A DNA stretch of 15,634 nt from Candidatus Hermodarchaeota archaeon (GCA_016840065.1 JAEOTB010000067.1:1-15634), one strand, 5' to 3'; positions 1,452 to 15,249 are shown, counted from the first letter of the stretch. Numbers and translations are program-made. Notes: generated from the sequence alone by a model not told the origin.

Positions 1452-1492
1452 TTTGAGGGCACTCATCGCTCAGGGCCTAGGAACAACGTACC
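1452..1492 (+). repeat. Diverged direct repeat A, left copy (flanks HEPN-MNT)
   Basis: tttgagggcactcatcgct-cagggcctaggaacaacgtacc matches 2500-2541 at 35/42 columns. Confidence 0.85.
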
Positions 1493-1599
1493 CTGTTGGC
1501 AACAATCGTTGAATAATTGTAGAATAGGGCGGGTATAGAGGTGGAGTTTTTTAAGGAATGTGTGCTTTAGTCTAGCCATCTGAATCATGGAGTTGTGGT

Positions 1600-2034
1600 A
1601 TGCCGCCTAATCAGCCCGTCAACCGAGAGCTGGTCGAGGCTCGAATCCGGGAAATCAATGACGCGCTTCAAACACTCAACACTCTTACCTGCAAGGATTT
1701 CAAAACATTGGTGTTGGTAGAGTTGCTAGCCCTTCGATATCTAGTAATCCAGCTCGTAGAAGCGGCAGCTAGTATTTGTATCAATCTCCTGGCTGCTCGT
1801 TTCAACGAACGCGCTGAAGGGTTCCCGGATTGCTTCACACGTCTAAGCGTGAAAGGGTTGATAACTGAGTCTCTTGCCCTTGCACTGGCAGGTGCAGCCC
1901 GGCTCCGAAACCTTCTCGTTCATCGCTACTGGGACATCAACGATGAACAACTCTACCTCAGCGCGAAAACAGGCGGAGCCGATTTCCTAGCTTCTGTGGA
2001 TAAGGTTCGGATAATTCTCGAGGAGGGAACATAA
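1600..2034 (+). CDS. hepT: HEPN-domain (DUF86) RNase toxin, type VII TA HepT family
   Basis: 144 aa helical protein with the RX4HXY motif (RNLLVHRY), followed by WDIN; adjacent to an MNT gene. Confidence 0.88.
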   Translation: MPPNQPVNRELVEARIREINDALQTLNTLTCKDFKTLVLVELLALRYLVIQLVEAAASICINLLAARFNERAEGFPDCFTRLSVKGLITESLALALAGAARLRNLLVHRYWDINDEQLYLSAKTGGADFLASVDKVRIILEEGT

Positions 2035-2038
2035 CCCG

Positions 2039-2491
2039 ATGGACGACTCGCCCACAATACAACCACACACTACTGAGAAGCTCGAGTTTGTATATCGCAC
2101 TCGTACAGCCCGGCAACGACGGAAGCTACGTCAAAGAATCACAGCCGCGCTACAAGAAGATCCCCAAGTGATGCTAGCTTACTTACATGGTAGCTTTGCG
2201 CGAGGCGAACCCTTCCGTGATGTTGACATTGCTCTCTGGCTCCAAAGCGATGACCCAAAAACAGCGTATTATTATTCTGTTCAAGTTGCGATAACACTTA
2301 GCAATACCCTTGGTCTCCCCGTTGATGTACAAGTACTCAACCACGCCCCCCTTCCCTTTCAATACCATGTGCTCTCCTATGGTATCCAGCTGCTCCCTCG
2401 TAATGAGGTACTACACTATCAGCTCTTTGACCTTTTCACCCGCCAATACCTTGACTTCCAAATACTGACCCGAAACACATTATCCCCCTAA
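2039..2491 (+). CDS. mntA: Minimal nucleotidyltransferase (MNT) antitoxin, MntA-like adenylyltransferase
   Basis: AYLHGSFARGEPFRDVDIA (GS..DxD) and VDVQVLNHAP motifs. GGAGG SD at the end of the upstream gene and a 4-bp gap from the HEPN gene. Confidence 0.88.
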   Translation: MDDSPTIQPHTTEKLEFVYRTRTARQRRKLRQRITAALQEDPQVMLAYLHGSFARGEPFRDVDIALWLQSDDPKTAYYYSVQVAITLSNTLGLPVDVQVLNHAPLPFQYHVLSYGIQLLPRNEVLHYQLFDLFTRQYLDFQILTRNTLSP

Positions 2492-2499
2492 AAGGGCTT

Positions 2500-2541
2500 T
2501 TTGAGGGCTCTAATCGCTTCAGGGTCTGGGAACGACGAACC
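2500..2541 (+). repeat. Diverged direct repeat A, right copy
   Basis: tttgagggctctaatcgcttcagggtctgggaacgacgaacc; starts 8 bp after the MNT stop codon. Confidence 0.85.
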
Positions 2542-2604
2542 TGGTACAAATTCCAAGGAGAAGTCACATTCATAAGTGGGTTAGACGGTGTGGAGGTGAT
2601 TCCC

Positions 2605-3258
2605 ATGATTGAAGGACTGGAAGCACGATTGAGGGCACGCGTCCTCCAAGAGAGCGCAGCCGTTGCCATAGATGAATGGACGGAGTTCCTCAACAGGCTC
2701 GATGTTCCCTTCTTCAACTATCGAGGCACCCACGTCACCGAAGTGGTCCGGATTGCCAAATATCTAGCTCGGGAGACGGGTGCGGACTATGACGTGGTGG
2801 TGATGGCGGCGTGGTTCCACGATGTGGCAAAACCTGGCACGGAAGGAACTGGGCGTCCTCATGGACCAGAATGCGCTGCTGTCGCTCGCACATACCTGCT
2901 GAAGGAGGGCGTCAATCCAGAAGTGGTTGAACGGGTGTGTGATGCCATCGAGAAACACGTGGGGTATACTCGCGATGCGCCCCTTACACCCCTTGAAGCC
3001 CAAGTTGTCTGGGAATCCGACAAGCTAGCCAAGCTAGGCATCACCAGCATGTTATTTCACCTAATCAACGGTCTGCGATATGAGCCCAACCCCAACTTGG
3101 ATGATATCCTTGAAAGAATGCGAAAGGGTCTGCCTGGGCTAAGGAAGATTGAAGCCAGTATGTTCACGGAACCGGGGCGACGAATCGCCAAGGCCCGGAT
3201 GCGCAGCTACGAATCCTTCATCGCTCTGCTAGAGAACGAGTTGAAAATGGAACAGTGA
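2605..3258 (+). CDS. HD-domain metal-dependent phosphohydrolase
   Basis: H(VTEV)...AAWFHDVAK...H...IEKH...WESDKL layout of the HD family. Start moved to ATG 2605 because GGAGGTGA (2592-2599) precedes it. Confidence 0.9.
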   Translation: MIEGLEARLRARVLQESAAVAIDEWTEFLNRLDVPFFNYRGTHVTEVVRIAKYLARETGADYDVVVMAAWFHDVAKPGTEGTGRPHGPECAAVARTYLLKEGVNPEVVERVCDAIEKHVGYTRDAPLTPLEAQVVWESDKLAKLGITSMLFHLINGLRYEPNPNLDDILERMRKGLPGLRKIEASMFTEPGRRIAKARMRSYESFIALLENELKMEQ

Positions 3259-3322
3259 ACCGATAGATTCTCCTCCACCGTGCGACCATGAGCCTTCCAA
3301 AGTAAATAATGTAAATATCCAG

Positions 3323-3367
3323 AAAGCAAATAAGTTTAGAAGTGGCGTTTTCTCACGGTGTTAACTC
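3323..3367 (+). promoter_or_regulatory. Conserved upstream region (probable BRE/TATA promoter and RBS) of small protein copy 1
   Basis: 35/45 ungapped identity with 9640-9684, upstream of the paralog. An AAAGC(A/T)AATAA element and CACGGTGTTA are conserved. Confidence 0.6.
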
Positions 3368-3610
3368 ATGACCCAATACAACCTTAAAGGCAGTGTCAAT
3401 TTTAAACACGACGAAGACTATGTCGCCGGTGCCCTCGGTATTCCTGGCCGCTGGGGCCCCATGTTGGATGTAGCTAGGCAGGCCTGGAAGCATGGCCAGA
3501 CATTCTCTGAAAAGATCGAGTACCTTGTCAGTAAACTCAACGGTGCAGAACTCGTTCTTGCCCTCATCTTCTTTGGAGATATATGGGACCCCACGGAAAA
3601 GCAAGGCTAG
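3368..3610 (+). CDS. Small hypothetical protein (80 aa), copy 1
   Basis: 52/70 aa identical to 9685-9957 with the frame conserved, which supports a real gene. No family recognised. Confidence 0.85.
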   Translation: MTQYNLKGSVNFKHDEDYVAGALGIPGRWGPMLDVARQAWKHGQTFSEKIEYLVSKLNGAELVLALIFFGDIWDPTEKQG

Positions 3611-3630
3611 CGGATTGGCTAAGAACTAAC

Positions 3631-3748
3631 GTGTTCACTGGACCTGGGCGGCGGATTGCCAATGCCCGGATACGCAGTCATGAATCCTTCATCAACCTGC
3701 GAGAAAGCAAGTTGAACATGGAACAATGACTGGATAGACTCTTCACCC
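3631..3748 (+). pseudogene. 3'-end fragment of an HD-domain gene homolog plus downstream spacer (diverged direct repeat B of 3160-3278)
   Basis: Encodes VFTGPGRRIANARIRSHESFINLRESKLNMEQ* versus MFTEPGRRIAKARMRSYESFIALLENELKMEQ*. 78/99 nt identical; similarity continues past the stop (gatagaYtct). Confidence 0.9.
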
Positions 3749-3787
3749 TCCCTATGTGTACTAAGATGATGAAGAAATCAGTGGATA

Positions 3788-4360: not shown

Positions 4361-5053
4361 TCACAGGACAAAGAAAGGCACTACTCCAAGAGAGACCAGG
4401 AAGACAAGACACCCACTCAAAACCAAGATAGAGAGCGGTAAATCGAAACCACGCAACCTTCCAATAGGAATGAGAAAGGACGACTTTTCCCTGTACGCCG
4501 TATACTGTTCACCAAACTTCTTAGAAAGATAGAACTCCTCGATTAACGCCAAGAAGAAATACAAACCTAGCTCCACAAACCAGACCATCAGAGTACCCTC
4601 GGGGGTCAACCAGCCAACCCCATAAGTACTCTTGAGTAGCGAATAACTCATCGCTGTCAACCCCAGTGTCAACAGGAGAAAACCCGTATACTGTGGATGC
4701 CGGATGAACCGATAAGGACCCGAAGTAACCAGCCCCTCCTTCCTGTGCCACAACAAGTACACGACAGAAAAAACGGCTAGAGCTAGACCCGCTACTACAA
4801 AGCCCAGCGCAACAGGAGAGAAGAAAGACCCGCTTTGTATGAAGTCGACAACCGCTAGGTGCAGGCTAGCTGGGAGCTGCTGCCCCAACAGAGCTAGATA
4901 CAACACAAGGGGCAAGGTCATCAAGGCAGGATACACGCCCATCGGAGGAATCTGCACGATCAGGGGAACCAAGTAACCGCTAACTTTCAGGAACCCAGCT
5001 CTGATCCTAGACACAAACGACATAGCAATCAACAGGGAAACCCAAGTAAGCAC
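4361..5053 (-). CDS. ICMT/Ste14/PEMT-like family membrane methyltransferase (second, divergent)
   Basis: LVTSGPYRFIRHPQYTG and EEFYLSKKFGEQYTAYREKSSFLIP motifs; extra C-terminal TM helix. The GTG start is uncertain. Confidence 0.85.
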   Translation of the reverse strand: MLTWVSLLIAMSFVSRIRAGFLKVSGYLVPLIVQIPPMGVYPALMTLPLVLYLALLGQQLPASLHLAVVDFIQSGSFFSPVALGFVVAGLALAVFSVVYLLWHRKEGLVTSGPYRFIRHPQYTGFLLLTLGLTAMSYSLLKSTYGVGWLTPEGTLMVWFVELGLYFFLALIEEFYLSKKFGEQYTAYREKSSFLIPIGRLRGFDLPLSILVLSGCLVFLVSLGVVPFFVL

Positions 5054-5116
5054 CTACTTATTATCCTAAAGGTTAGAACAAGTCAAAGGAGTTCATTCAA
5101 CAGATTAGAACACCCA
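5051..5116 (+). repeat. Diverged direct repeat C, left copy (flanks the 379-aa gene)
   Basis: cacctacttattatcctaaaggttagaac...gttc...agaacacccaa versus 6334-6387. The core tatcctaaaggttagaac matches 17/18. Confidence 0.7.
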
Positions 5117-5180
5117 AGAACTAGTCTAGTCCCGTATCCCATCTGACCCGAAAGGGCTATCAGCTAGTAGGTTTCAATAT

Positions 5181-6320
5181 ATGGTCATGGGCTCTGTGAG
5201 GGATAACTTGATCAAGCATCTGGATACACTGCGGGCCTTCATCCTCGAAGTCCACAAGGTCGATTCCGGGCTCTACACCGTGGACCAAGTCGACACCTTA
5301 CTCCCTCAGCCCAACGCCTTCAAGTACATCGACCGAGATTGGGCCAACACTCTCCGTGAAGCCCTCGGCTACATCGAATGGTACCTGCGGCTGGTGAGAA
5401 CATGGGCTGACCATTTCTATAGCATAGTTCTGAGCCTTGGTGCTACCCAGGAGGAGGCAGTCCGTATCCGGAAACGAGAACTGGGCAGCTTCACCGTCTT
5501 CAAAGACAAAGTCTTCGAAAAGACCTATATTGACGGGGTCCTTAAGGGTCTCCAGAGTGAAGCAGAACGCGTCCTCAAGGATTCACAAGCACTCATGGAC
5601 AAAGGCCCTAGATTGTTCGAACTGATTAGACAATTCGGTGGTCCTTACTTTGAAAAAGTCCTAGAAATCGGTATGGCCTGGATTGCTGTAGACCCCAATG
5701 ACCTATACACCCCCCTCAAAGGGCTCACAAAAACCAGTAAAGCCGCGAAAACCTCCGAAGACCTGATAATGTCTTTTGGACGGTACCTCGACCAAATCGC
5801 CTCCCTGCTTGCTACCATACCTGTGTTTGTAGGGCTTGAAACAGTCTTAAACTTCACGGACTCACAAATGCAGGCCAGCCGAGAAAGCCACCAGAACCTC
5901 ATTAACCAAGTAGAAAATCTGCAGGGTTACATCGAACAGTACCACGAGGCCCTAAACCAGATAAACCAGCACATCACTTTCCTGCTACTCCCAGTTCTTC
6001 CAAACACTACCCCGGTTCAACAATGGATTACCCGTCATCAATCTAGCCGCACAACCCTCACTGAAAAACTCCTTCCCTCCTCCATCGACCCCAAGGCGCT
6101 AGCCTCCACGCTCCAAGCCGCCAGTGACAAACTCGTAGTAACGGATACCATCATCGACACCGCCCGGCTCCTCCTCACTAAAGCACTCCCCTTCAACGCC
6201 ATCATCCAGTCGCCCTCCATCACCCAGTTTCTCGACGCCGCAAAACAGAGAATCACCATTTTCTGGAGATGGCGACCTCACATCGAGAAAACCTTCGCCA
6301 GCCTACAATCCAGCCTATAG
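5181..6320 (+). CDS. Hypothetical soluble, predominantly alpha-helical protein (379 aa)
   Basis: Long ORF with natural composition and amphipathic/coiled-coil-like stretches. No motif recognised. The start may be 5181 or 5187. Confidence 0.8.
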   Translation: MVMGSVRDNLIKHLDTLRAFILEVHKVDSGLYTVDQVDTLLPQPNAFKYIDRDWANTLREALGYIEWYLRLVRTWADHFYSIVLSLGATQEEAVRIRKRELGSFTVFKDKVFEKTYIDGVLKGLQSEAERVLKDSQALMDKGPRLFELIRQFGGPYFEKVLEIGMAWIAVDPNDLYTPLKGLTKTSKAAKTSEDLIMSFGRYLDQIASLLATIPVFVGLETVLNFTDSQMQASRESHQNLINQVENLQGYIEQYHEALNQINQHITFLLLPVLPNTTPVQQWITRHQSSRTTLTEKLLPSSIDPKALASTLQAASDKLVVTDTIIDTARLLLTKALPFNAIIQSPSITQFLDAAKQRITIFWRWRPHIEKTFASLQSSL

Positions 6321-6333
6321 CACCCCTCGCTCC

Positions 6334-6387
6334 CACCTAATATCCTACAGGTTAGAACGGCGTGTTCTAGGGTTAAGAACACACCAA
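6334..6387 (+). repeat. Diverged direct repeat C, right copy
   Basis: cacctaatatcctacaggttagaac...gttc...agaacacaccaa. Confidence 0.7.
6359..6385. terminator. Inverted repeat between convergent genes (possible bidirectional terminator or protein-binding site)
   Basis: GGCGTGTTCT-agggtta-AGAACACACC (9/10 stem), overlapping TAGAAC-N5-GTTCTA. A perfect palindrome CCATGATCATGG lies at 6397-6408. Confidence 0.35.
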
Positions 6388-6417
6388 ACAGATGAACCAT
6401 GATCATGGAAGCTGTTG

Positions 6418-7767
6418 CTACCTATCACACATAACCGAAAAAGGAGTCTGAATAGCTGTTAAAGCAAACGTTATTGACGCGTCTACATGAAAACGCTTAC
6501 AAGTACGCGTGAACCCGTAAAACACGACCACAGCAAAGACACCACCCGCTACCGCAACTAGCGTAACCCCAGCCCAGAATTCAGGACCGAGAGGTGGTGT
6601 TACAGGAGGGGTGTAGGGTGTAGGAGGTGTGTTGTCTCCTGTCCATACTGGTGCTTCTTGTACCGTGAATGATTCACCCAGGGCATCCAGTGTTCCTAGA
6701 GCTCGCAGTATTTCTACTGCCGCATAACATCGCATAAGCTGCTCTCTAACGGGATTATCAATATCGCTAGGAATATTGACAAACCCTCCATGCATTGGAG
6801 TTTGACAGGAAAGCACAAACTCTGTAGTCAGAGTAGCATTTACCTGGTTCAACCTACCCAACAACTCCAAGCTTAGAATGGCAGAATAAGTATGCGCCAG
6901 TTCACCAGCAAATGATCCATCATCTTCATAGAAGCCCATCAGATAATTTTCGATTGCGTCTGCTGAAACCAAGCCAATCGTACCAAGATGATGAAGAACT
7001 GAAACGCCGTTAATTGTACCTGATGGAGAACGTGTGCCTTCAAATGTAACCGAAAAACCTGCTACTGAACCATCTGAATCGTAATATCCAAGCGTGTACT
7101 GATTAGTAAGTGCCGAATTTATACGCCCAAGTTCACCAAGACAATTTAATGTTGCAATATCATTATACAAAGGCCATATGAGGCTGCTGTAACTACTGGG
7201 TTGACTGTTGAACCCTCCATCGCTGGTCCTGTAACAATCCATCACCCAGTTCGTTGTTGCCTCTTGATTAATAGAGTCCAACGCGTTGAGGTGATATAGG
7301 GTTTCGACCGCACCGTTTACAGTACCGTAGTCAACAGGAGTTTCCCAAGGGCTAGTAGTAAAACCACCGTCTACTTCTTCACAATCGACCACGAATGAGA
7401 TTAGGCTAGCTTCATCAATGGCAGAGAGTTCGTCAAGTACTGACATGACAAGTGTTGCCCACTTGGATGCTTTCAGAAGAGCAGCAGAGCGGGGTTCCAT
7501 TAGATTGTCAATGAAGCCTCCATCCACCATCTGGAGCTCAGAGATGAAGTCGACTATTGCTTGATGTCTTGTGGTATCATAAGCTTTTGAATAGCGAATA
7601 GCGTGTACTGAAATGGTCTCCATTTGGGGTGGGGAAGTATGGGTTTGCAGGAGTGGGATTGATGGATTCTTGTCAATTCCTGTTAAACTATACACTGAAG
7701 GTAAGAGAATCATTGCTGTTAAAGCTAGTAGAACTCCACACAGGAGAATCTTCAGTTGTTTGTGCAT
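6418..7767 (-). CDS. Prenyltransferase/squalene oxidase repeat protein (GGTase-beta-like alpha/alpha barrel), secreted and membrane-anchored
   Basis: Repeated (D/H)GGF motifs (VDGGFID, VDGGFTT, SDGGFNS, DDGSF, MHGGFVN), each followed by T..A...L..LG helices. N-terminal signal/TM, Pro/Thr-rich linker (NTPPTPYTPPVTPP) and C-terminal TM. Confidence 0.85.
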   Translation of the reverse strand: MHKQLKILLCGVLLALTAMILLPSVYSLTGIDKNPSIPLLQTHTSPPQMETISVHAIRYSKAYDTTRHQAIVDFISELQMVDGGFIDNLMEPRSAALLKASKWATLVMSVLDELSAIDEASLISFVVDCEEVDGGFTTSPWETPVDYGTVNGAVETLYHLNALDSINQEATTNWVMDCYRTSDGGFNSQPSSYSSLIWPLYNDIATLNCLGELGRINSALTNQYTLGYYDSDGSVAGFSVTFEGTRSPSGTINGVSVLHHLGTIGLVSADAIENYLMGFYEDDGSFAGELAHTYSAILSLELLGRLNQVNATLTTEFVLSCQTPMHGGFVNIPSDIDNPVREQLMRCYAAVEILRALGTLDALGESFTVQEAPVWTGDNTPPTPYTPPVTPPLGPEFWAGVTLVAVAGGVFAVVVFYGFTRTCKRFHVDASITFALTAIQTPFSVMCDR

Positions 7768-7892
7768 TCCTTATCCCATCTGAAGTCGGAGGTGTCGCCT
7801 TCTTTCTTATATCAGTGGATTTACGTTATATGATTTTTGTACTGCTTCGGTTTTAAGATATCTGAGGAACCTGACAATTCGTTATGTAGCGA

Positions 7893-7925
7893 TGGTTCCC
7901 AACCTAAATTTTCATATAGTATTTG
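7893..7925 (+). promoter_or_regulatory. Conserved upstream element of LLM copy 1 (probable promoter)
   Basis: tggttcccaacctaaattttcatatagtatttg is close to 11412-11444, upstream of LLM copy 2. Confidence 0.55.
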
Positions 7926-7949
7926 TCTGTCCTACACTTTGGTGATTTT

Positions 7950-8783
7950 TTGAGTAGGAAAACAAAGTTCGGCATCTACATTGCCAATCATGGCATTACT
8001 AATAATCCACAAGATTACGTCGCATTAGCTAAGAGTTCAGAAGAACATGGATGGGAAGGGTTCTTCATATGGGACCACGTTTTCCTACCGTGGGCACCAG
8101 ATCAAGCTGTATTGGATCCATGGATCGTCTTGTCCGCGATAGCTACTCAAACAAATAACATGGCTATTGGAACCACAGTGACACCATTACCACGAAGAAG
8201 GCCAACGGTCATCGCACGAGAAGCAATAACACTCGATAGACTTTCTAATGGACAATTTATTCTAGGTGTGGGATTAGGAGGCACTGCTGAACTGAAAGCC
8301 TTAGGTGATGAGGAGGATCCTAAGACTCGAGGAGAGATGCTGGATGAATCGTTACTCATCCTCAAAGGGTTGTGGTCTGGCAAACCCTTTACCTTTGATG
8401 GCAAACACTTCCAAATCAAAGAACCAGTGACATTCAAACCAGAAGGGAAAATCAAGATTTGGTGCGGAGGTAACTGGCCCAACAAGAGACCATTCCGACG
8501 GGCTGCGAAATATGACGGGATATTTCCATTGAAAGTCGGTTCTGACCCCTCAATCTATCCGCAAGATATGCGAGAAATCATGAGTTACATTGGCAAGTAC
8601 AGGAAATCGCTGGACACCTTTGATTGGGTAAAGAGTATCTACACCATTGCAGACCGAGAACACGACGCCTATATCCATGAATTCATCGACATGGGTGTAA
8701 ATTGGCTCCTAGAGGCATTCTGGCCCGCACGGTGTGGCTTGAAGGAAATTCAAAAGAGAATCGAACAAGGTCCCCCAGAATAA
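7950..8783 (+). CDS. LLM-class (luciferase-like) flavin/F420-dependent oxidoreductase, copy 1
   Basis: GWEGFFIWDH, DPW..LSAIA..T...IGTTVTPL.RRRP..IAREA.TLDRLS.G.FILGVGLG and IWCGG motifs. TTG start at 7950 after a GGTGA SD, conserved in the paralog. Confidence 0.92.
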   Translation: MSRKTKFGIYIANHGITNNPQDYVALAKSSEEHGWEGFFIWDHVFLPWAPDQAVLDPWIVLSAIATQTNNMAIGTTVTPLPRRRPTVIAREAITLDRLSNGQFILGVGLGGTAELKALGDEEDPKTRGEMLDESLLILKGLWSGKPFTFDGKHFQIKEPVTFKPEGKIKIWCGGNWPNKRPFRRAAKYDGIFPLKVGSDPSIYPQDMREIMSYIGKYRKSLDTFDWVKSIYTIADREHDAYIHEFIDMGVNWLLEAFWPARCGLKEIQKRIEQGPPE

Positions 8784-8924
8784 TTTTGGAAAGACGAGTA
8801 CTTTTCGAGTGGAAATGGAGCTATTTACTCTAGACATCTATAGACTACTCGGTAAATAACAGTTTTAAATTAGGGAGCTAATTACTGGATAGAACGTACA
8901 CTATCTGTACGCTGGGTTGGGAAG

Positions 8925-9545
8925 ATGCAAATTATTTGGCCCAAAGCATGTGTAGCATGTGGTCGCGGGGATGAGCAGACCCCACTCACACGGCACCGCT
9001 ATCCTTTCAAGCATTCTCAAATGATTGGTGGCGAACCATCCCTCCACCTTTGCCCCCCCTGCTATTCGCGGGCTAGAAAACGCTACATCACCGGTGCTGT
9101 ATCCCTCTTCCTTATCTTTGCCATAGCACTACCATTGACACTACTCTTCTACACAGTTACTGTCCAGTGGCAGACGATACTCGGGTTATATCTTACTGAA
9201 CTGGAATATCAGTTATCTACACTATCCTTTCTAAATCAACAAGCCACAATAAGCAATGGATTATATTGGGGCTGCCTAGGCATTGCTCTTCTCTTCCTCG
9301 GGCTCTGGATAAGGTGGATTACAGGCAAGCGTCATCTAGCGAAACAATCCCTGAAGATGAAAGTCGATAAACTTGAAAAATCTCTTTCGGACTTGAAACC
9401 CCTCAGACCACAATTTACCAAATTCCCGACCAAGGTTAAACTCTATAGTTATACCGAAGAGGATGTGGCATACGAATTAGATGTGTCTGCAGCATACGCG
9501 CAAATCTTTCTCAGCGCTAACCCAGCATGGAAGGAGTGTACGTAA
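8925..9545 (+). CDS. Hypothetical membrane protein with an N-terminal CxxC...CxxC Zn-ribbon and two TM segments
   Basis: CVACG...HLCPPCY, followed by hydrophobic helices (GAVSLFLIFAIALPLTLLFY; GLYWGCLGIALLFLGLWI). Confidence 0.75.
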   Translation: MQIIWPKACVACGRGDEQTPLTRHRYPFKHSQMIGGEPSLHLCPPCYSRARKRYITGAVSLFLIFAIALPLTLLFYTVTVQWQTILGLYLTELEYQLSTLSFLNQQATISNGLYWGCLGIALLFLGLWIRWITGKRHLAKQSLKMKVDKLEKSLSDLKPLRPQFTKFPTKVKLYSYTEEDVAYELDVSAAYAQIFLSANPAWKECT

Positions 9546-9577
9546 CGCGACAGAACCCCTCAAGCGGACGATGGCGA

Positions 9578-9610
9578 CGAGTAAGGTCCTCCAGAATAAT
9601 CCGGGAAAGA
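9578..9610 (+). repeat. Diverged copy of the LLM gene 3' end and downstream bases (direct repeat D of 8762-8794)
   Basis: cgagtaaggtcctccagaataatccgggaaaga versus cgaacaaggtcccccagaataattttggaaaga, 27/33. It retains GPPE*. Confidence 0.75.
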
Positions 9611-9684
9611 TATTTTACAGCTAGCGGGTGGATAACCTCAAAGCTAATAACCCTAGAAGCGGCGGCTTGTCACGGTGTTATCTT

Positions 9685-9957
9685 TTGACCAAGTACAACC
9701 TCAAAGGCAGTATCACCTTCAAACACAACGAAGACTATGTCGCCGACGCCATCGGCATCCCGGACCGCTGGAATCCCCTGTTGGATATGGCTCAGCAAGC
9801 CTGGAATCATGGAAGGACCTTATCCGAAAAGATCGAGTACCTGGTCAGCCGACTCGACGGCGCGGAACTCGTCCTCGCTCTCATCCTCCTTGGGGAAAAG
9901 GTGGAATGGTCACCTTCAGATCACCCGTTATGGTGGAATAAATACAGCCAGAAATAA
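9685..9957 (+). CDS. Small hypothetical protein (90 aa), copy 2
   Basis: TTG at 9685 aligns with ATG 3368 of the paralog. 74% identity over 70 aa; the C-terminal tails are unrelated. Confidence 0.82.
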   Translation: MTKYNLKGSITFKHNEDYVADAIGIPDRWNPLLDMAQQAWNHGRTLSEKIEYLVSRLDGAELVLALILLGEKVEWSPSDHPLWWNKYSQK

Positions 9958-10126
9958 TTGTTCAGCAACGGAGAAACTTGCATTGAACTTGATGGATATC
10001 ATTCACCGACAGCGTGCCCCGAAACCATGGGCGGAGGGCGAAAAGACCCCGTGGAATGCCCCCGACTTCAGTCAACGCATGCTCAAGGAACACTTGTCGC
10101 AGGAGCACGATCTTGCCAGCCGTTGC
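9958..10126 (+). pseudogene. 5'-end fragment (RBS plus 48 codons) of a SAM methyltransferase homolog (direct repeat E of 12398-12566)
   Basis: Ungapped offset of 2440 bp. MNLMDIIHRQRAPKPWAEGEKTPWNAPDFSQRMLKEHLSQEHDLASRC versus MKLLDIIHRQRAPKPWAEGEKIPWDAPDFSQRMLNEHLSQEHDLASRR. 21 nt differences in 144, of which 15 are synonymous. Confidence 0.93.
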
Positions 10127-10173
10127 GAATTCTTGGGTAGTCATTGGTCCCATAGATCGAACACATTCAACAA

Positions 10174-11160
10174 CTATGAATGTTCTCTGAGAAATTTAAT
10201 GAGTTCCGAATTCATCTTGGAAACATGTTCTCCTAACCAGACTACATGTCCTATATTCTCAAGACTTAGTAACCTAGCATTCGGGATAGACGTTGCTGAA
10301 AATTCAGCATTGGAGTATGACACATCTCCATCAACTGTTCCATGAATCACCAATGTTGGACAATTTACAGCTTCCAAGGAGGTAAAAGATATCTGTTGAA
10401 GTTGCTCAATATCATTGTTTAGACCAACCTTTCTTGGACTCATTGGACATGTCGTGCGGATGAACCTCTTATACCAATCAACTTGCTCCGGGATAGCCAT
10501 CACTTGTGAGATATAATTATCTCGATCCTCAGAATCTACAATCATTGTCTCTTTGAGCGCTTGCTTTAACGACCAAGCAGTCGAGCGCCTAGTCAACATA
10601 TCATATATCCACACTCCAAAATCTGCTATGGAATCAGACAAAAATATCCTACCAAGCAAAGAATTCATTGCGTCTAAGTTCACGGTATATTCACGACTGA
10701 CTGCTGCCATTAGAATAAGAGCACTTATTCGGTCTGGATGCCGTAGAGCAAAGTGCAGAGCTACAGGACCTCCCGCTGAAGCTCCTAGAATCGCGACTTC
10801 TGGTATCCCCAGAGTAACCAATAGTGCTTCAATTGCATCTGCTTGTTCTTCGAATGTTTCCCCTGTGCTCAATGGTGTGCGCAGATACCCTGGTCTAGAT
10901 ATTGCCAATAATGAAAAACCCTCTTTGATCCACATACCCATATCAATTGAGCTTTGATCATATCCTCCAGGAGCTCCGTGTAGTGTTAAGAGTACAGGTC
11001 CACTTCCCTTCAGAGAGTACTCGATCTCACCCATTGAAGTAACAGCTATTTCGCTGCCTTCATTTAGAGTGTTGAGTAAATTCCGCTTCCACCGCCTGAA
11101 TGATATGATAATAAAGACAAGTAGTACTGCTAATAAGACCAGGGAGAGTTCAACGAACAT
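10174..11160 (-). CDS. Alpha/beta-fold hydrolase with N-terminal membrane anchor
   Basis: LHGAPGG oxyanion loop, SRPGY, nucleophile GASAGG, HGTVDGDV and IGH. ATG 11160 precedes the TM helix; an alternative TTG start is at 11208. Confidence 0.88.
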   Translation of the reverse strand: MFVELSLVLLAVLLVFIIISFRRWKRNLLNTLNEGSEIAVTSMGEIEYSLKGSGPVLLTLHGAPGGYDQSSIDMGMWIKEGFSLLAISRPGYLRTPLSTGETFEEQADAIEALLVTLGIPEVAILGASAGGPVALHFALRHPDRISALILMAAVSREYTVNLDAMNSLLGRIFLSDSIADFGVWIYDMLTRRSTAWSLKQALKETMIVDSEDRDNYISQVMAIPEQVDWYKRFIRTTCPMSPRKVGLNNDIEQLQQISFTSLEAVNCPTLVIHGTVDGDVSYSNAEFSATSIPNARLLSLENIGHVVWLGEHVSKMNSELIKFLREHS

Positions 11161-11340
11161 AATGAGCACACTCAGCTTGATAGCATCACATTCTTTGCAC
11201 ACTCGCAAAGTACAATCGTGCTTAAATCACCATCTGTATCCTATCTCTGTTTTGATAATCTTTCCGAATGAAACTGCAGAAAGGTGAAGTCTAAGCAGAC
11301 TTTGGTCAAGGACACCCCGAAGCGAATTAGACTACAGGTT

Positions 11341-11361
11341 AGAACACTTTGAATTGAGTTA
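11341..11361 (+). repeat. Direct repeat F, left copy (flanks LLM copy 2)
   Basis: agaacactttgaattgagtta versus 12338-12358 agaacactttgaattgaatta, 20/21. Confidence 0.85.
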
Positions 11362-11495
11362 TTCTCGACAAAAGGGGAGTTGCTCCATTTTTGGGGAGTT
11401 GTTAGAGTTATTGGTTCCCAACCAAAATTCAGATATACTCTTTGCATGAAAACACGTCAATAGAGATTTAACAGCATTATTTTTTGGTGATTTTG

Positions 11496-12329
11496 TTGAG
11501 TAGGAAAGTAAAGTTCGGCATATATATTGCTAATCATGGACTTACCAGTAATCCACAAGATTACGTCACGTTAGCGAAGAGTGGAGAAGAACATGGATGG
11601 GAAGGGTTCTTCATATGGGACCACGTTTTCCTACCGTGGGCACCAGACCAAGCCGTATTGGATCCATGGGTTATATTGTCTGCAATCGCTACTCAAACGC
11701 ATAAAACGGCTATTGGTACAACGGTAACCCCATTAGCAAGAAGAAGGCCCATGATAATAGCACGAGAAGCAATGACACTCGATAGACTTTCTAGTGGAAG
11801 ATTTATTCTTGGTGTGGGATTGGGAGGTACAGGAGAACTCAAAGTTCTCGGTGAAGAGGAGGACCCTAAGACTCGAGGAGCTATGCTTGATGAATCGTTA
11901 CTAATCCTCAAAGGGTTGTGGTCTGGCAAACCCTTCACCTTTGAAGGCAAACACTACCAAATCAAAGAACCAGTAATATTCAAACCAGAAAGTAAGATTA
12001 AGATTTGGTGCGGAGGTAACTGGCCCAACAAAAGACCATTCCGACGGGCCGCGAAATATGACGGGATTTTTCCATTGAAAGTCGGATCTGATCCCTCAAT
12101 CTATCCGCAAGATATGCGAGAAATCATGAGTTACATTGGCAAGTACCGGAAATCCCTGGACTCCTTTGATTGGGTAAAAAGCATATACACCCTTGGCGAC
12201 AGAGAACACGACGCGTATATCCATGAATTCATTGACATGGGTTGTACTTGGCTATTAGAGGCTTTCTGGCCAGCACGGTGTGGCTTGAAGGAAATTCAAA
12301 AGCGAATCGAACAAGGTCCTCCCGAATAA
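11496..12329 (+). CDS. LLM-class (luciferase-like) flavin/F420-dependent oxidoreductase, copy 2
   Basis: 277 aa, about 248/277 identical to copy 1. GGTGA SD before TTG 11496. Confidence 0.92.
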   Translation: MSRKVKFGIYIANHGLTSNPQDYVTLAKSGEEHGWEGFFIWDHVFLPWAPDQAVLDPWVILSAIATQTHKTAIGTTVTPLARRRPMIIAREAMTLDRLSSGRFILGVGLGGTGELKVLGEEEDPKTRGAMLDESLLILKGLWSGKPFTFEGKHYQIKEPVIFKPESKIKIWCGGNWPNKRPFRRAAKYDGIFPLKVGSDPSIYPQDMREIMSYIGKYRKSLDSFDWVKSIYTLGDREHDAYIHEFIDMGCTWLLEAFWPARCGLKEIQKRIEQGPPE

Positions 12330-12337
12330 TTTTGGAA

Positions 12338-12358
12338 AGAACACTTTGAATTGAATTA
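12338..12358 (+). repeat. Direct repeat F, right copy
   Basis: Begins where similarity between the two LLM downstream regions ends (ttttggaaaga). Confidence 0.85.
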
Positions 12359-12422
12359 AGGCTTAATACGTTAGCCACTAATCAACACTAGATGTTGTTG
12401 TTCAACAAAGGAGAAACTCACT

Positions 12423-13274
12423 TTGAAACTACTGGATATCATTCATCGACAGCGTGCCCCTAAACCGTGGGCTGAGGGGGAAAAGATCCCGTGGGATGCC
12501 CCAGACTTTAGTCAACGAATGCTAAACGAACACCTGTCCCAAGAGCACGATCTTGCCAGTCGTCGCTTCGAGATTATCGATAAGCACGTCAACTGGATTC
12601 ACAATCAGGTTCTGAAGGGGAATCCGACTCGAATTCTTGACCTTGGCTGTGGACCTGGATTGTACACGAATCGTCTGGCAAGACTTGGGCACAGTTGTGT
12701 AGGGATCGATTTCTCTCCAGCATCAATAGCTTATGCCAGAGAGCAGGCTGAGGAAACGGGTCTCGAATGTACGTATATCCACCAAGATATTCGGACAGCA
12801 GGGTATGGCGACGAGTATGGCCTTGTCATGTCGATTTATGGCGAGTTTAACGTTTTCCGTCCTAGGGAAGCAAGAGGTATTCTTGAGAAAGCCTGTCGCG
12901 CCTTGGCATCCAATGGGTTTCTACTTCTTGAACCGCACACGTTTGACGCCGTCGCTAAGATAGGAGAACGGTCCTCTTCGTGGTACTCGGCAGTGAAAGG
13001 GTTGTTTTCGGAGAAGCTGCACCTGTGCCTTGAAGAGAGTTTCTGGGATGCGGAACACAATGTAACGATTCAACGGTACTATATCGTCGATGCTATGTCA
13101 GGTGAGGTGACGCGCTATTCGTCCAGTATGCAGGCGTATACGGACGAAGAATACCGGTCGTTATTGGCTGAATGTGGGTTTGGTGAAGCGATGTTTTATT
13201 CATCATTGGGTGGAAGCGGGAGTGATTCAGAGGGCTATTTGATGGCTATCCTTTCACAGAAGGGCGTGGCCTAA
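12423..13274 (+). CDS. Class I SAM-dependent methyltransferase
   Basis: Motif I ILDLGCGPG, GIDFS, QDIR and LASNGFLLLE. AAGGAG RBS before the TTG start. Confidence 0.92.
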   Translation: MKLLDIIHRQRAPKPWAEGEKIPWDAPDFSQRMLNEHLSQEHDLASRRFEIIDKHVNWIHNQVLKGNPTRILDLGCGPGLYTNRLARLGHSCVGIDFSPASIAYAREQAEETGLECTYIHQDIRTAGYGDEYGLVMSIYGEFNVFRPREARGILEKACRALASNGFLLLEPHTFDAVAKIGERSSSWYSAVKGLFSEKLHLCLEESFWDAEHNVTIQRYYIVDAMSGEVTRYSSSMQAYTDEEYRSLLAECGFGEAMFYSSLGGSGSDSEGYLMAILSQKGVA

Positions 13275-13321
13275 CTAGCGTGTGTTACAAGCCTTTTCTT
13301 GACAACGTGTTCCTCCGATGT

Positions 13322-13527
13322 TGGATTTAAATCTCTGATGCCCTGTTAGTTGAACTATGTCTGTTGTGGCGGTTGTAAAGGGAGAACGAGGTCTTGAACC
13401 CATTTTTAGGGCAATAGAGCTGATACCCTTCAAGGAAGCGCTTGAGCCCTTTGAAAGGGTCTTGGTGAAACCTAATCTGATTACAAGCCACACTTTCGAG
13501 ACCGGAATCACAACGCATCGAGTCTAG
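13322..13527 (+). pseudogene. Promoter plus 5' fragment (53 codons) of a DUF362 gene homolog (direct repeat G of 14390-14583)
   Basis: ATG 13357 gives MSVVAVVKGERGLEPIFRAIELIPFKEALEPFERVLVKPNLITSHTFETGITT-HRV*, with 42/53 aa identical to the N-terminus of 14425-15249. Ungapped offset of 1068 bp including the TATA-like tggattt(a/t)aat. Confidence 0.92.
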
Positions 13528-14333
13528 TCTCCTCCAGCGAGGAATTCCAGTATCATGGGTACGACCAGGTCTTCCTGCTCGCGTGTGAAGGCGTGTGGTG
13601 CATCCCTGAATACATGTAACTTGGCTCGAGGTATGCGTTCGGCGAGGATTCGGGCGTTCTCGGGATGAAAGAGCACATCCTTCTCTCCTGCCATGATCAG
13701 ACAGGGAACGTGAATATCTGGTAACCGTTCATAGGTCCCCTTCCAGCTCATCACGGCCTGTGCTTGCCGCCATTTCCCAGTGAAGGTTGTCGGGTACTTG
13801 ATGGCTTGGGTCTCCTGCATCAAGGTGTCCCGGTGGGCTTCCACAAACGCAGGCGAGTACACTATACTCCACCACAGTTCCATTGCCTCCTCTGTTGACA
13901 TGGTCGGGGGTGGATTCGAAGCCGTCATCATCTTCTGTTGCACCTCACCTGCAACAGGCACGCTGTGGGGACCACCAAATGTCGTCATACTTAGAATCAG
14001 ACGTAGAACCTTCGTGGGATACGCTAGGACAAGTTCTTGAGCTATCATGCCGCCCATCGAGGCACCAAAGATATGGGCCTGCTGATACTCAAGTTCATCC
14101 ATTAATCCTGCGACATCGTCAGCCATCATTTTGATAGAATATTCAGCGTCAGGGACGGTGCTCCGTCCGGTTCCACGGTTATCGAACAAGACGACCTGAT
14201 AGGACCTGGCTAGTTGCTTCCAAAAGGGTCCCCACATCTCCACACTTGCCCCAAACCCATTAATCATGACTAGGGGCGGTCCTTCTCCATGAAGTTCATA
14301 GTAAACCTCGATATCGTTAACTTTTACCTTCAA
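13524..14333 (-). CDS. Alpha/beta-fold hydrolase (3-oxoadipate enol-lactonase-like family)
   Basis: YYELHGEGPPLVMING, FDNRGTGRS, GASMGG nucleophile, GEKD and DAPH. Confidence 0.92.
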   Translation of the reverse strand: MKVKVNDIEVYYELHGEGPPLVMINGFGASVEMWGPFWKQLARSYQVVLFDNRGTGRSTVPDAEYSIKMMADDVAGLMDELEYQQAHIFGASMGGMIAQELVLAYPTKVLRLILSMTTFGGPHSVPVAGEVQQKMMTASNPPPTMSTEEAMELWWSIVYSPAFVEAHRDTLMQETQAIKYPTTFTGKWRQAQAVMSWKGTYERLPDIHVPCLIMAGEKDVLFHPENARILAERIPRAKLHVFRDAPHAFTREQEDLVVPMILEFLAGGD

Positions 14334-14389
14334 TGCTTCACTCTCACGGGGATACTGGTCTGAAAAACTACATATTAACCTCGAAAGAC

Positions 14390-14404
14390 TGGATTTTAAT
14401 ATTT
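14390..14404 (+). promoter_or_regulatory. Probable archaeal TATA box about 30 nt upstream of the DUF362 start (short or leaderless transcript)
   Basis: GAAAGACTGGATTTTAATAT; position conserved in the fragment copy at 13322. Confidence 0.5.
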
Positions 14405-14424
14405 AACGTTTTGTAAATAGGAAC

Positions 14425-15249
14425 ATGTCATTAGTGGCTGTTGCTAAGGGAGACCGCGGACTTGAACCTGTATTTCGGGCAATGGAACTAATACCCTTCA
14501 AGGAAGCGTTCGAGTCCTATGACACGGTCTTGGTGAAACCTAATCTCATCACCGGTCACACCTTCGAGACAGGAATCACCACCGACCCCGTCGTAGTGGA
14601 GGCGGTGCTCTTGAAGATCCAGGAACTGGACAAGAAAGCGATTGTGGTGGAGACCGCGGGCGGCATCACTTCACCCGACGAAGCCATCATCGAGACTGGG
14701 ATGATGGAAGTCCTTGACCGGCTGGGTGTCGAATATGTCAACATGGGGAAGCTTGACGACCAGGTCGAACTGGAGGTAGAGAATCCTCGGGCATTAAAGA
14801 CCTTCAAGGTAGCCCGTCTCGCCACCGAGTCAGCGATTATCACAGTGCCATCAATGAAGACGTTGGGGCACACATCTATCACGATGGGATTGAAGAACAT
14901 GTTCGGTATGCTCACAACATCGAGCAAGTATCCCCTTCACAAACTGGGCACAAACAACTTCATCTACGACATCTGCAAGACCCTACCACCCACGCTCAGT
15001 GTGATCGATGGCTTCTATGGCAAGTCTGGCAGGGGTCCATGGAGTGGTGCACCAGTGAAGATGGATACAATCATCGCGAGCGTGGATCCAGTCGCCGCAG
15101 ACGCCACAGCCGCCCGATGCATCGGCATCGACCCCAATACGATAGATCACGTTCGTTGGCTCCATGAAGCTGGTATGGGTGAAATCACCGACATAGAAGT
15201 TGTAGGTGATGGCATCGACGCTGTCTACCAGAAATGGGAGCTAGATTGA
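14425..15249 (+). CDS. DUF362 domain protein
   Basis: VLVKPNL, TTDP.VVEA, VPSMKT..H...TMGLKNMFG, IDG..G...GP..G and DPVAADA motifs. Confidence 0.85.
   Translation: MSLVAVAKGDRGLEPVFRAMELIPFKEAFESYDTVLVKPNLITGHTFETGITTDPVVVEAVLLKIQELDKKAIVVETAGGITSPDEAIIETGMMEVLDRLGVEYVNMGKLDDQVELEVENPRALKTFKVARLATESAIITVPSMKTLGHTSITMGLKNMFGMLTTSSKYPLHKLGTNNFIYDICKTLPPTLSVIDGFYGKSGRGPWSGAPVKMDTIIASVDPVAADATAARCIGIDPNTIDHVRWLHEAGMGEITDIEVVGDGIDAVYQKWELD

Follow-up and report, generated by a model that had tools for sequence, protein, structure and literature searches.

Orphan arrays in Rhs/CDI loci and in the effector-immunity loci of the Vibrio cholerae T6SS have been explained by "C-terminal displacement", and PMC5361080, which cites the Rhs work, attributes the successive displacements, which leave orphan genes and shifted 3' ends, to homology-facilitated illegitimate recombination. 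In these arrays a homologously anchored incoming module displaces the end of a resident gene. That older 3' end is shifted but kept, along with the gene downstream of it, and successive events produce an array in direct orientation without an integrase. Homology-facilitated illegitimate recombination was defined experimentally in bacteria, in the original studies cited by PMC5361080 (de Vries and Wackernagel 2002; Prudhomme et al. 2002; Meier and Wackernagel 2003; see also PMC3240628). It joins one homologous and one illegitimate end, with microhomology at a joint; foreign genes enter without a recombinase, and recipient DNA is usually replaced without duplication. Nothing of the kind is known to us from Asgard archaea. 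Each integration of a WHO homing element at yeast FBA1 likewise puts a new 3' end on the target gene, with the former one shifted downstream (PMC7282813), and is driven by an endonuclease that the element encodes. Integrons accumulate gene-sized accessory modules serially at one locus, and in tandem islands at tRNA and tmRNA genes repeated copies of one target gene end, normally made by an integrase, separate the inserted modules.

The locus described here is an entire MAG contig of 15,634 nt from Candidatus Hermodarchaeota archaeon (GCA_016840065.1 JAEOTB010000067.1:1-15634), hereafter the window; the assembly to which it belongs (G000) comprises 2.59 Mb, is 84% complete and has 5% contamination. 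An earlier note had described it as a serial array of captured genes, each module bracketed by its own diverged direct repeat. All seven repeat pairs were recovered by self-BLAST of the window and a repeat finder (Table 1), and they are real and non-random; for a window of 15.6 kb, our own estimate of chance matches is <0.01 for each of C, D and F. The gene content proposed for the brackets was also confirmed, and the pairs are indeed different sequences apart from a motif common to C and F, four of the seven being coding gene ends. Repeat lengths span 21 to 193 nt, the gene-end repeats are 77%–85% identical, and the longest exact run is ~17 nt. Two larger paralogous pairs, LLM1/LLM2 and small1/small2, overlie this pattern. 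A transposon with target-site duplication was considered and rejected, as the lengths vary, the copies had already diverged when they were joined, the repeat finder returned no inverted repeats flanking any module in the window, and there is no transposase; the earlier note had drawn the same distinction.

Table 1. Coordinates of genes, relics, element copies and repeat pairs in the window
Feature	Position	Strand	Remarks
Repeat A, left copy	1452–1492	+	Intergenic, upstream of HEPN; unique to this locus in the genome apart from its partner
HEPN (HepT-like) and MNT (Polbeta nucleotidyltransferase)	1600–2034; 2039–2491	+	PF01934, PF18765; inside A
Repeat A, right copy	2500–2541	+	Just upstream of HD gene; G003 contig begins near here
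Intact HD-domain gene	2590–3258	+	PF01966
Repeat B, left copy	3161–3276		Last 33 HD-gene codons plus ~18 nt
small1	3368–3610	+	80 aa, no family assigned; paralogue of small2; bracketed by B
Repeat B, right copy	3632–3747	+	HD-gene 3' end relic; frame and stop intact
ICMT2	4361–5053	−	ICMT/PEMT-family membrane methyltransferase (Pfam); start abuts element copy 1
Element copy 1 (earlier C left)	5059–5115	+	nhmmer left arm E = 4e-7, right arm E = 6e-3
p379	5181–6320	+	379 aa, no family assigned; bracketed by C
Element copy 2 (earlier C right)	6338–6384	+	Downstream of PT449; nhmmer
LLM1 unit with upstream region	7893–8794	+	Luciferase-like monooxygenase gene 7923–8783; tail 8762–8794 is D, left copy
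Zn206	8925–9545	+	Zinc-ribbon membrane protein; bracketed by D
D, right copy	9578–9610	+	Resident LLM 3' tail relic; 27/33 to LLM1 tail
small2	9628–9957	+	Paralogue of small1; 88.5% to G003:C120
E, left copy	9958–10126	+	5' stub of methyltransferase allele; ribosome-binding site plus 48 codons
hyd1	10174–11208	−	Alpha/beta hydrolase, cargo; Pfam
Element copy 3, left arm, with F left copy (11341–11361)	11325–11361	+	nhmmer, genome motif search
LLM2 unit	11412–12340	+	Gene 11484–12329; bracketed by F
F right copy (12338–12358) with remainder of split element	12338–12395	+	20/21
Intact SAM-methyltransferase unit	12398–13274	+	Gene 12423–13274; Pfam; start is E, right copy
G, left copy	13322–13514	+	DUF362 upstream region plus 52-codon stub; 77%–81% to 14390–14582
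hyd2	13524–14333	−	Alpha/beta hydrolase, cargo; Pfam; only 27% identical to hyd1
Intact DUF362 unit	14390–15249	+	Gene 14425–15249; PF04015; contains G, right copy
Pair A	1452–1492 / 2500–2541		35/42, one gap, E = 1e-4 (self-BLAST)
Pair B	3161–3271 / 3632–3742		78% (self-BLAST)
Pair C	5050–5079 / 6329–6358		25/30; better described as gapped two-part match, 5059–5115 / 6338–6384
Pair D	8762–8794 / 9578–9610		27/33
Pair E	9958–10126 / 12398–12566		84.6%, 169 nt
Pair F	11341–11361 / 12338–12358		20/21 (95% identical)
Pair G	13352–13514 / 14421–14582		81%; extends to 13322 / 14390 at 77%
LLM1/LLM2	7938–8794 / 11483–12340		88.6% (self-BLAST)
small1/small2	3315–3579 / 9632–9896		78%

Three of the gene-end relics (B, E and G) are long enough for a codon test. 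They were once working alleles, because their differences from the intact copy are mainly synonymous: by codon position these number 3/4/13 for the B relic against the HD-gene tail (dN/dS 0.21), 5/1/15 for the E stub (dN/dS 0.07, dS 0.83) and 6/3/21 for the G stub (dN/dS 0.13), with dS of 0.74–0.83 across the three and no indels. The pooled share of third-position differences, 49/71, departs from what would be expected had the stub begun as an identical duplicate and then decayed neutrally (p = 4e-5). For comparison, dN/dS is 0.12 for the intact LLM1/LLM2 pair, orthologues of G000 and its relative G003 have dS of 0.47–1.0, and G000 and genus g2 are separated by a dS of 0.97. The relics had thus diverged to about the level of species or genera, and their truncation came late. 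The DUF362 stub and intact copy share 79% protein identity, while each reaches 90% to an orthologue in genus g2, whose members have one DUF362 copy per genome; the upstream part of the left copy of G also matches relatives over a longer stretch than does that of the intact copy. This agrees with the earlier note's suggestion that the duplicated ends are diverged alleles.

The events are of different ages, in keeping with the serial addition that had been proposed. G003 carries the orthologous B relic in a form decayed by indels, and B is therefore older than that species split; the small1 orthologue in the same genome (G003:C177) is 83% identical. D is absent from G003, where small2 comes immediately after the LLM gene on contig C120, with one tail and no Zn206, which is the un-inserted state that the earlier note had suggested looking for in relatives. 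The D relic and the bases downstream of it match this LLM-small2 junction and not the LLM1/LLM2 type, and a third copy of D, at 12308–12340, is simply the LLM2 tail. LLM1 itself is probably a mosaic, judged against the single reference allele in G003: its sliding identity to that allele drops from 87%–91% to 73%–80% beyond ~8540, where it becomes LLM2/G002-like, so that at least ~270 nt of its 3' end would have been replaced or displaced. The 5' third of LLM2 is 90% identical to genus-g2 LLMs, compared with 86.6% to LLM1. The two copies of F are 95% identical.

Backbone genes of the window are found in sister genomes, unlike the cargo: hyd1, hyd2, Zn206 and HEPN-MNT were not detected in any of them with DNA queries, nor were hyd1 and hyd2 with protein queries. 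The hydrolases are foreign, with their closest relatives in other Asgard families. Protein search found no hyd1 in its own genus, and its ORF, but nothing beyond it, matches a genome of another family (f6) at 79% aa and 81% nt identity; hyd2 was found in 0/18 genomes of its family, and its best matches, at 58%–59% aa, are in family f18. That these four modules were not detected in sister genomes agrees with the gene addition proposed in the earlier note, but the cargo derives from distant Asgard families rather than from lineages with the same locus. Neither hyd1 adjoining the methyltransferase nor hyd2 adjoining DUF362 was seen in any of the genomes searched, and homologues of the methyltransferase in metagenomes have no neighbours in common with the window gene; the failure to find a donor arrangement for either combination in these genomes counts against the explanation that we favour below. 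HEPN-MNT, the only toxin-antitoxin-like pair in the window, had no DNA match among 40 relatives. The repeat around it, A, is a short intergenic duplication that we assign neither to the gene-end relics nor to the element described next.

The claim that every module has its own private repeat fails for C and F, which are copies of one conserved cis-element. Their shared core, CCTAMAGGTTAGAAC, occurs four times in the 2.59-Mb assembly, three of them in the window, and is part of a two-part element, TTATCCTAMAGGTTAGAAC ... GTTCTACAYTYTTGAACACC, with directly repeated arms and only 1–4 exact copies per genome. Its place is fixed: across two genera it lies upstream of an Opp-permease gene on four contigs and upstream of an ICMT2-type gene on three, and six other contigs from two genera show this conserved upstream position. 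Copy 1 occupies the orthologous position in G003:C177, where the arrangement with ICMT2 recurs, as it does more loosely in G016:C15. Like copy 2, the copies in G000:C7 and G003:C130 follow PT449-like genes, with an Opp permease next, and the spacer and right arm of copy 3 (up to 12395) resemble G003:C177. The p379 module (5146–6321) has three different contexts in three genomes. On our reading the element probably belongs to the neighbouring genes (ICMT2-type genes, Opp permease, PT449 flank), and C and F are no capture scars in their own right. F is probably a duplication of 21 nt from inside the element, placed around the LLM2 module, and one of its junctions has a microhomology of 3 nt; read directly, that junction shows the right copy overlapping the LLM2 tail by three bases, AGA.

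As the earlier note had reported, there is no recombinase in view: the window ORFs have no recombinase domain in Pfam, and the inserted genes gave no match to recombinase, transposase or nuclease families in Pfam and further family searches, in which p379 matched no family at all and small1, small2, Zn206, hyd1 and hyd2 likewise showed no nuclease family. The whole 84%-complete assembly has zero matches to PF00589, which is matched in 14 of 14 control genomes, and zero to PF01797; its three TnpB genes all lie on other contigs. The window thus differs from WHO elements in the lack of a nuclease match, and from tRNA and tmRNA islands in having seven different sequences and no integrase that we could find. 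It differs from integrons in having neither IntI nor any other tyrosine recombinase. Nor do its modules end in anything like attC, the imperfect inverted repeat with R''/R' cores found at the 3' end of every integron cassette, the repeats being fragments of different genes. Integron cassettes are mostly promoterless and share one orientation behind Pc; here modules lie on both strands, and p379, small1/small2 and the LLM genes travel with their own upstream regions. A genome-wide survey, which the earlier note had recommended, found comparable relics, terminal gene fragments beside an intact homologue, at about ten other loci, with a 16:0 excess of direct orientation. Nothing here suggests dedicated machinery of the integron-like kind that had been envisaged.

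Several other origins can be weighed against these data. Small circles, each carrying a gene and a short piece of an allele of its neighbour, could integrate by single crossover in the manner of Campbell and so duplicate that piece around the insert, the route by which the earlier note had the repeats serve as crossover anchors. We consider this unlikely, even though in every pair the insert lies between repeats of equal extent and an intact copy is always retained, the local terminal fragments are all direct genome-wide, and the two LLM tails around Zn206 correspond to a single one in G003. Equal extents follow automatically from Campbell insertion, which speaks against our preferred explanation. 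Anchors of 21–193 nt with 77%–85% identity (78%–85% for the repeats put forward as anchors) and longest exact runs of ~17 nt offer homologous recombination a poor substrate. A crossover in the 33-nt anchor at D would not yield an LLM1 whose 3' ~270 nt are not of the resident, G003-like type, a replacement that fits end displacement better. The circles would also be only ~0.5–2.4 kb, without a replication or recombination gene. Weakly against reciprocal chimeras, the first 52 codons and the remainder of intact DUF362 rank relatives alike, while the stub ranks them differently, a comparison over 156 nt only. Alternatively, the methyltransferase, DUF362, HD and LLM genes may have had old paralogues within the genome that diverged under selection, one copy of each later being truncated by deletion. 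Intact pairs of LLM and of the small protein are present here, the small1/small2 split predates that of G000 and G003, PT449 and Zn206 have paralogues on other contigs, and low stub dN/dS is equally expected; nevertheless this seems quite improbable. Neither DUF362 nor this methyltransferase was seen as two full adjacent copies in any relative, and what lies between the copies is foreign to the family. With both DUF362 copies nearer to genus-g2 orthologues than to each other, the paralogy must predate the genus split and be followed by loss in every g2 genome searched, and the identity of hyd1 to hyd2, only 27%, leaves no collinear unit that could have been duplicated.

We give very little credence to a site-specific cassette system using the two-part element as its site and an unrecognised recombinase encoded elsewhere. 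Same-orientation pairs of the element, 1.0–1.35 kb apart, do bracket p379, LLM2 and a two-gene module in G002:C113, and the low-copy element has left and right contexts that vary between genomes. Its fixed position upstream of Opp and ICMT2-type genes, however, is the behaviour of a promoter, operator or leader; it is missing, without degenerate copies by nhmmer, at the junctions of A, B, D, E and G (5/7 brackets), and no recombinase family turned up near any copy or in the genome. It is just as hard to believe that the contig is a chimera of co-assembled related populations. Contamination of the MAG is 5%, over its final 127 nt the window is identical to the beginning of G002:C54, which was binned to another species, and contigs of several relatives break within LLM genes; the junctions of E, F and G are known from this one MAG contig, which also weighs against our own explanation. 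A chimeric join, however, requires a shared k-mer, and none is shared with the intact copies at 10126/10127 and 13514/13515; a de Bruijn graph keeps copies that are 77%–89% identical apart, B was assembled independently in G003, and the D relic matches the G003 junction.

On balance we lean towards recombination of the displacement type, in which one end is homologous and the other illegitimate. A DNA segment from a relative at roughly species-to-genus distance would arrive with one or two extra genes and a full-length, diverged allele of a gene already resident. A first crossover would take place in shared sequence, and the other end would be joined illegitimately within the resident allele, so that the new intact copy comes to lie beside what is left of a largely displaced allele, a 5' stub in E and G and a 3' tail in B and D; selection would retain only outcomes with one working copy. 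Both this mechanism and the direction of each event are what we infer. The resemblance to Rhs/CDI and T6SS orphan arrays lies in an intact gene with the displaced end of an older allele nearby (B, D, E, G), and in relics that derive from diverged functional alleles and not from fresh duplications. The window differs in that it has no polymorphic toxin and immunity content, its genes being HD, LLM, methyltransferase, DUF362 and hydrolases; it has one relic per gene in place of a string, 5' stubs as well as 3' tails, and an Asgard archaeon as host. The AGA overlap at the right LLM2 junction is a possible counterpart of the microhomology in homology-facilitated illegitimate recombination. In the classical form of that process the foreign tail is without homology, whereas here the joint lies inside the resident copy of a gene that the donor carries intact; the classical model does not by itself predict such a joint, with the duplication that results, four times over, which weighs against our explanation. 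So does the inefficiency of homologous crossovers at ~15%–20% divergence in the bacteria that have been tested.

Of the earlier interpretation, then, the diverged alleles, the different ages and the absence of an integrase stand, while the private scars at C and F, the crossover anchors, the donors sharing the locus and the integron-like system do not. The relics in the window are most likely scars left by recurrent exchange of DNA with related lineages, and no new integron-like capture machine is called for. By a modest balance of probability, this part of the genome would be a fast-changing island whose repeats are by-products of ordinary recombination of the displacement type.

All seven direct-repeat pairs (A to G), which the earlier note had read as brackets around captured gene modules, were recovered in place by self-BLAST and a repeat finder. 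For the short pairs C, D and F, the chance expectation is by our own estimate <0.01 each per window of this size; a third copy of D is the tail of LLM2, the second luciferase-like monooxygenase gene, itself. In pairs B, D, E and G one copy is a relic, the leftover end of a gene beside an intact, diverged copy. The window is a whole contig (C49), one of 131 in a 2.59-Mb MAG with 84% completeness and 5% contamination.

Genes of the window in order, direct-repeat pairs with their relic copies, and related features (positions refer to the window unless a contig of the source assembly, G000, is named)
Feature	Order	Position	Strand	Description
40-aa-repeat protein	1	3-1343	minus	
HEPN and MNT	2			
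HD	3			HD-domain gene
small1	4			80 aa
ICMT1, ICMT2	5		plus, minus	ICMT-family membrane methyltransferases
p379	6			Family unassigned
PT449	7		minus	Membrane-anchored, prenyltransferase-like repeats
LLM1	8			Luciferase-like monooxygenase
Zn206	9			Zinc-ribbon membrane protein
small2	10			
hyd1	11	10174-11208	minus	Alpha/beta hydrolase
LLM2	12			
MT	13			SAM methyltransferase
hyd2	14		minus	Alpha/beta hydrolase
DUF362	15			
ACR3/SBF-type transporter	16			Start only
Pair A				35/42, E = 1e-4
Pair B				111-116 nt, 78%; right copy duplicates the HD gene's final 33 codons and stop
Pair C				25/30, short
Pair D				27/33, short; right copy, final codons of an LLM gene and 11 following bases
Pair E				169 nt, 84.6%; left copy, ribosome-binding site and first 48 codons of MT
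Pair F				20/21, short
Pair G				163-193 nt, 77-81%; left copy, DUF362 upstream region and first 52 codons
Element copy before ICMT2		5059-5115		
Element copy after PT449		6338-6384		
Third element, left part		11325-11361		Left arm and F
Third element, right part		12338-12395		F, spacer and right-arm-like piece
Synthase-like relic and intact gene		G000:C65:1712-1945 and 6678-7742		
TnpB-like ORF end and its repeat		G000:C17:1627-1667 and 6717-6757		
Second PT449-like gene, apparently split		G000:C54:11445-11661 / G000:C7:1-1266		

Differences between relics and intact copies fall mostly at third codon positions (first/second/third: 5/1/15 in E, 6/3/21 in G and 3/4/13 in B), and the coding parts of these three relics contain no indels. 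Their dN/dS values are 0.07 (E), 0.13 (G) and 0.21 (B) at a dS of 0.74–0.83, the same regime as the intact LLM1/LLM2 pair (dN/dS 0.12); for scale, orthologue dS is 0.47–1.0 between the source genome and the sister species G003, and about 1.0 to the sister genus. A null model of identical duplication followed by neutral decay of the stub expects ~45% of differences at third positions; 49 of 71 are found there, and the null is rejected (p = 4e-5). Hence either the joining brought together working alleles that had diverged beforehand, or the truncation of one copy is recent. The same pattern excludes a target-site duplication that later decayed, in agreement with the earlier note. The DUF362 stub and intact gene share 79% protein identity, each is 90% identical to some sister-genus orthologue, and the sister-genus genomes that matched hold one DUF362 copy each; old paralogy with universal loss is thus less economical than exchange between lineages. 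Metagenomes yielded 80 loci with homologues of the methyltransferase MT (up to 79% aa), none sharing a neighbor with the window, so they offered neither an empty site nor a donor for E or G; none of these homologues is nearer to the E stub than the window's intact MT.

The sister species G003 carries the HD gene, small1 (one of two small protein paralogues) and an HD-tail relic in an order matching the window, in a structure assembled independently there. The G003 relic has acquired indels, and the presence of the B structure with a decayed relic indicates that B predates the species split. For D, a comparison with relatives of the kind the earlier note had proposed does reveal an empty site: in G003, small2 directly follows the LLM gene, with a single tail and no Zn206. 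In the window, the D relic tail and the sequence that follows it are of the G003 junction type (TAATYCGGGMAAGATATT) and differ from TAATTTTGGAAAGAC, the tail type common to LLM1, LLM2 and the sister genus. In a sliding comparison, LLM1 is 87–91% identical to the G003 gene up to about position 8540 and 73–80% thereafter, where it groups with LLM2 and the related genome G002. The simplest reading, which has one reference allele (G003) behind it, would be an end displacement: the LLM 3' part and Zn206 would have been imported through a crossover within the LLM gene, with the outer end attached to the resident gene 33 nt short of its end. The 5' third of LLM2, at 90% to sister-genus LLMs versus 86.6% to LLM1, is, judged by these identities, a case of further mosaicism. 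Contigs of at least five relatives (G001, G002, G003, G004 and G015) start or end within LLM, a gene that in those populations, too, probably has several copies or varies strongly.

The short motif that the earlier note had noticed in both C and F is real and common to the two, and it belongs to a conserved two-part element that lies upstream of genes in relatives. The element consists of TTATCCTAMAGGTTAGAAC, a spacer of 5–36 nt and GTTCTACAYTYTTGAACACC; its arms are direct repeats of one another and short palindromes as well. Of the C/F core, CCTAMAGGTTAGAAC, the 2.59-Mb assembly holds just four copies, three of them in the window, which rules out a generic genome-wide motif. Exact copies of the element number 1–4 per genome in the genus and in two sister-genus genomes, and these alone are meaningful, one-mismatch matches in relatives being at background level. 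In four contigs (G000:C7, G002:C113, G003:C130 and G007:C64) the element immediately precedes an Opp-type permease gene, and three others have it upstream of ICMT2-type genes (the window, G003:C177 and, as a one-mismatch copy, G016:C15). This recurrent position before ICMT2-type genes indicates that the copy before ICMT2 is native; the next copy, after PT449, is also in its native place, with the Opp gene next in other contigs. The 379-aa protein p379 therefore sits between pre-existing elements with no scar of its own, and the claim that C is a private scar around it falls. F is the 21-nt interior of a third element that is split by the LLM2 module, with an AGA overlap between the right F copy and the tail of LLM2, and it may be a genuine recent insertion-duplication. 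Profiles of both arms (nhmmer) revealed no degenerate copies at other junctions. We read the element as a putative promoter, operator or leader motif, perhaps doubling as portable homology; that it is a recombination site seems most improbable. The second PT449-like gene (90–95% nt), whose two parts overlap by about 126 nt, is also followed by the two-part element and the Opp permease gene, and is probably a paralogous locus at which the assembly breaks.

The backbone genes of the window have counterparts in family genomes by DNA search. The same search returned none for HEPN-MNT, Zn206, hyd1 or hyd2 in the 18 other family genomes, and a distant paralogue of Zn206 on another contig of the source genome. 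By protein search hyd2 is likewise absent from all 18, its best matches (58–59%) coming from another family. The inserted genes thus appear foreign to the family. For hyd1, not found in its own genus, a gene from yet another Asgard family (G133:C62) is 79% identical in amino acids and 81% in nucleotides across 10183–11204, with similarity limited to the ORF and dissimilar flanks, which suggests a fairly recent transfer between Asgard families. Exact-protein look-ups gave no record for either hydrolase, and their nearest homologues have neighbors without a methyltransferase, LLM or DUF362. Identity between hyd1 and hyd2 is only 27%, so triplication of a collinear unit (hydrolase-LLM-MT-DUF362) is ruled out and a duplicated unit of this kind cannot account for the geometry of E and G. 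Together with 35 nt upstream, p379 occurs in three contexts in three genomes of the genus; it matches no family in Pfam, NCBIfam or PADLOC, and Atlas gives weak leads only, to helical toxin-like folds. The last 127 nt of the window (15508–15634) and the opening 127 nt of G002:C54 (1–2373) are 100% identical. G002:C54 is binned to another species, and on it the ACR3-type gene runs on and is followed by a second p379 homologue (72% aa). The identity resembles a k = 127 graph overlap, and this contig may truly continue the window, or the bins may share one assembly. At the other end, the first gene encodes a predicted secreted protein with seven to eight tandem 40-aa (120-nt) repeats (HNGQVTW...DG.D.EI..WDG) and no Pfam match; similar genes lie on several contigs of G002 and G003.

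No recombinase, transposase or nuclease family is matched by the window ORFs, in line with the earlier note, which saw no recombinase, and Rfam (E up to 1) and tRNA scans found no known RNAs. The tyrosine-recombinase family PF00589, Xer-type gene included, has no match in the whole 84%-complete assembly, against matches in 14/14 control genomes; such a gene may have diverged too far to match, or be encoded outside the assembled part. The Y1-transposase family is also unmatched across the assembly, and three TnpB-like genes of the assembly lie on other contigs.

Local repeats within 10 kb in the source genome are 172 direct versus two inverted; tandem paralogues and repeats internal to proteins make up most of them. 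When terminal fragments near an intact homologue were sought at the protein level, 16 direct and no inverted cases emerged, an approximate count, since several of these "stubs" are RING or zinc-ribbon domains common to neighboring paralogues. Genome-wide, where the earlier note had proposed to measure such bracketing, direct-only relics thus occupy roughly ten loci; the window (15.6 kb) holds three of the clearest, a density figure from one genome. A robust case is a 3' relic of a myo-inositol-1-phosphate-synthase-like gene on C65 (72 codons, 85% aa, direct, 4.7 kb from the gene); it is a scar like those of the window, left by a gene of housekeeping type. Others are an HD-protein fragment on C51 and arrays on C69 and C88. 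On C17, the final 41 nt of a TnpB-like ORF are found again 5 kb downstream (93% identity); this second copy may represent a solitary right end or guide-RNA region of the TnpB-like element.

Displacement-type recombination is the best-supported origin of the relics. An incoming segment from a related lineage would bear an intact diverged allele and extra genes; one end would recombine in shared sequence, and the other would be joined illegitimately within the resident allele, whose stub would remain. The logic is that of the homology-facilitated illegitimate recombination proposed for Vibrio T6SS orphan-immunity arrays and Rhs "C-terminal displacement" (PMC5361080). WHO elements at yeast FBA1 likewise show repeated 3'-end replacement (PMC7282813), whereas the window inserts have no nuclease match.

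Campbell-type insertion of small circles, the route preferred in the earlier note, would arrive at the same final geometry as displacement; we consider it improbable, as the supposed anchors are poor in identity, LLM1 is a mosaic and the intact DUF362 is weakly indicated to be of single origin along its length. Old paralogues thinned by later deletions would fit the low dN/dS and would require unseen double copies and many losses, a history that we find quite improbable. A chimeric origin of the window in assembly is unlikely: no k-mer is common to the joints and the intact copies, and there is independent support for B and D. The array is best described as a set of recombination scars plus a conserved cis-element; the general kind of scar is known, the host and the gene set being what is unusual. 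Serial additions, diverged alleles and the lack of a detectable recombinase survive from the serial capture array first proposed; a new integron-like system does not.

Asgard archaea are the closest prokaryotic relatives of eukaryotes; to our knowledge little is known of how they take up foreign genes, and we know of no genetic tools for the group. We give a small chance to a more general reading, in which Hermodarchaeota-type Asgard archaea would routinely gain genes by integrase-independent, homology-anchored additive recombination, each event leaving a diverged neighbor-gene end. Such islands, assembled by cellular recombination and repair machinery, would correspond in function to integrons, with the two-part element perhaps serving as portable homology and the roughly ten direct-only relic loci reflecting the same process. 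At present this is descriptive comparative genomics, and the mechanism is of a familiar type. The island is a readable record of several gene gains, from before the species split to recent, with cargo from other Asgard families, flanking alleles at species-to-genus distance and no integrase or transposase found, and the two-part element is a candidate cis-regulatory site. Should closed genomes bear the pattern out, relic ends could be used to date and count recombination-driven gene gains in uncultured archaea.
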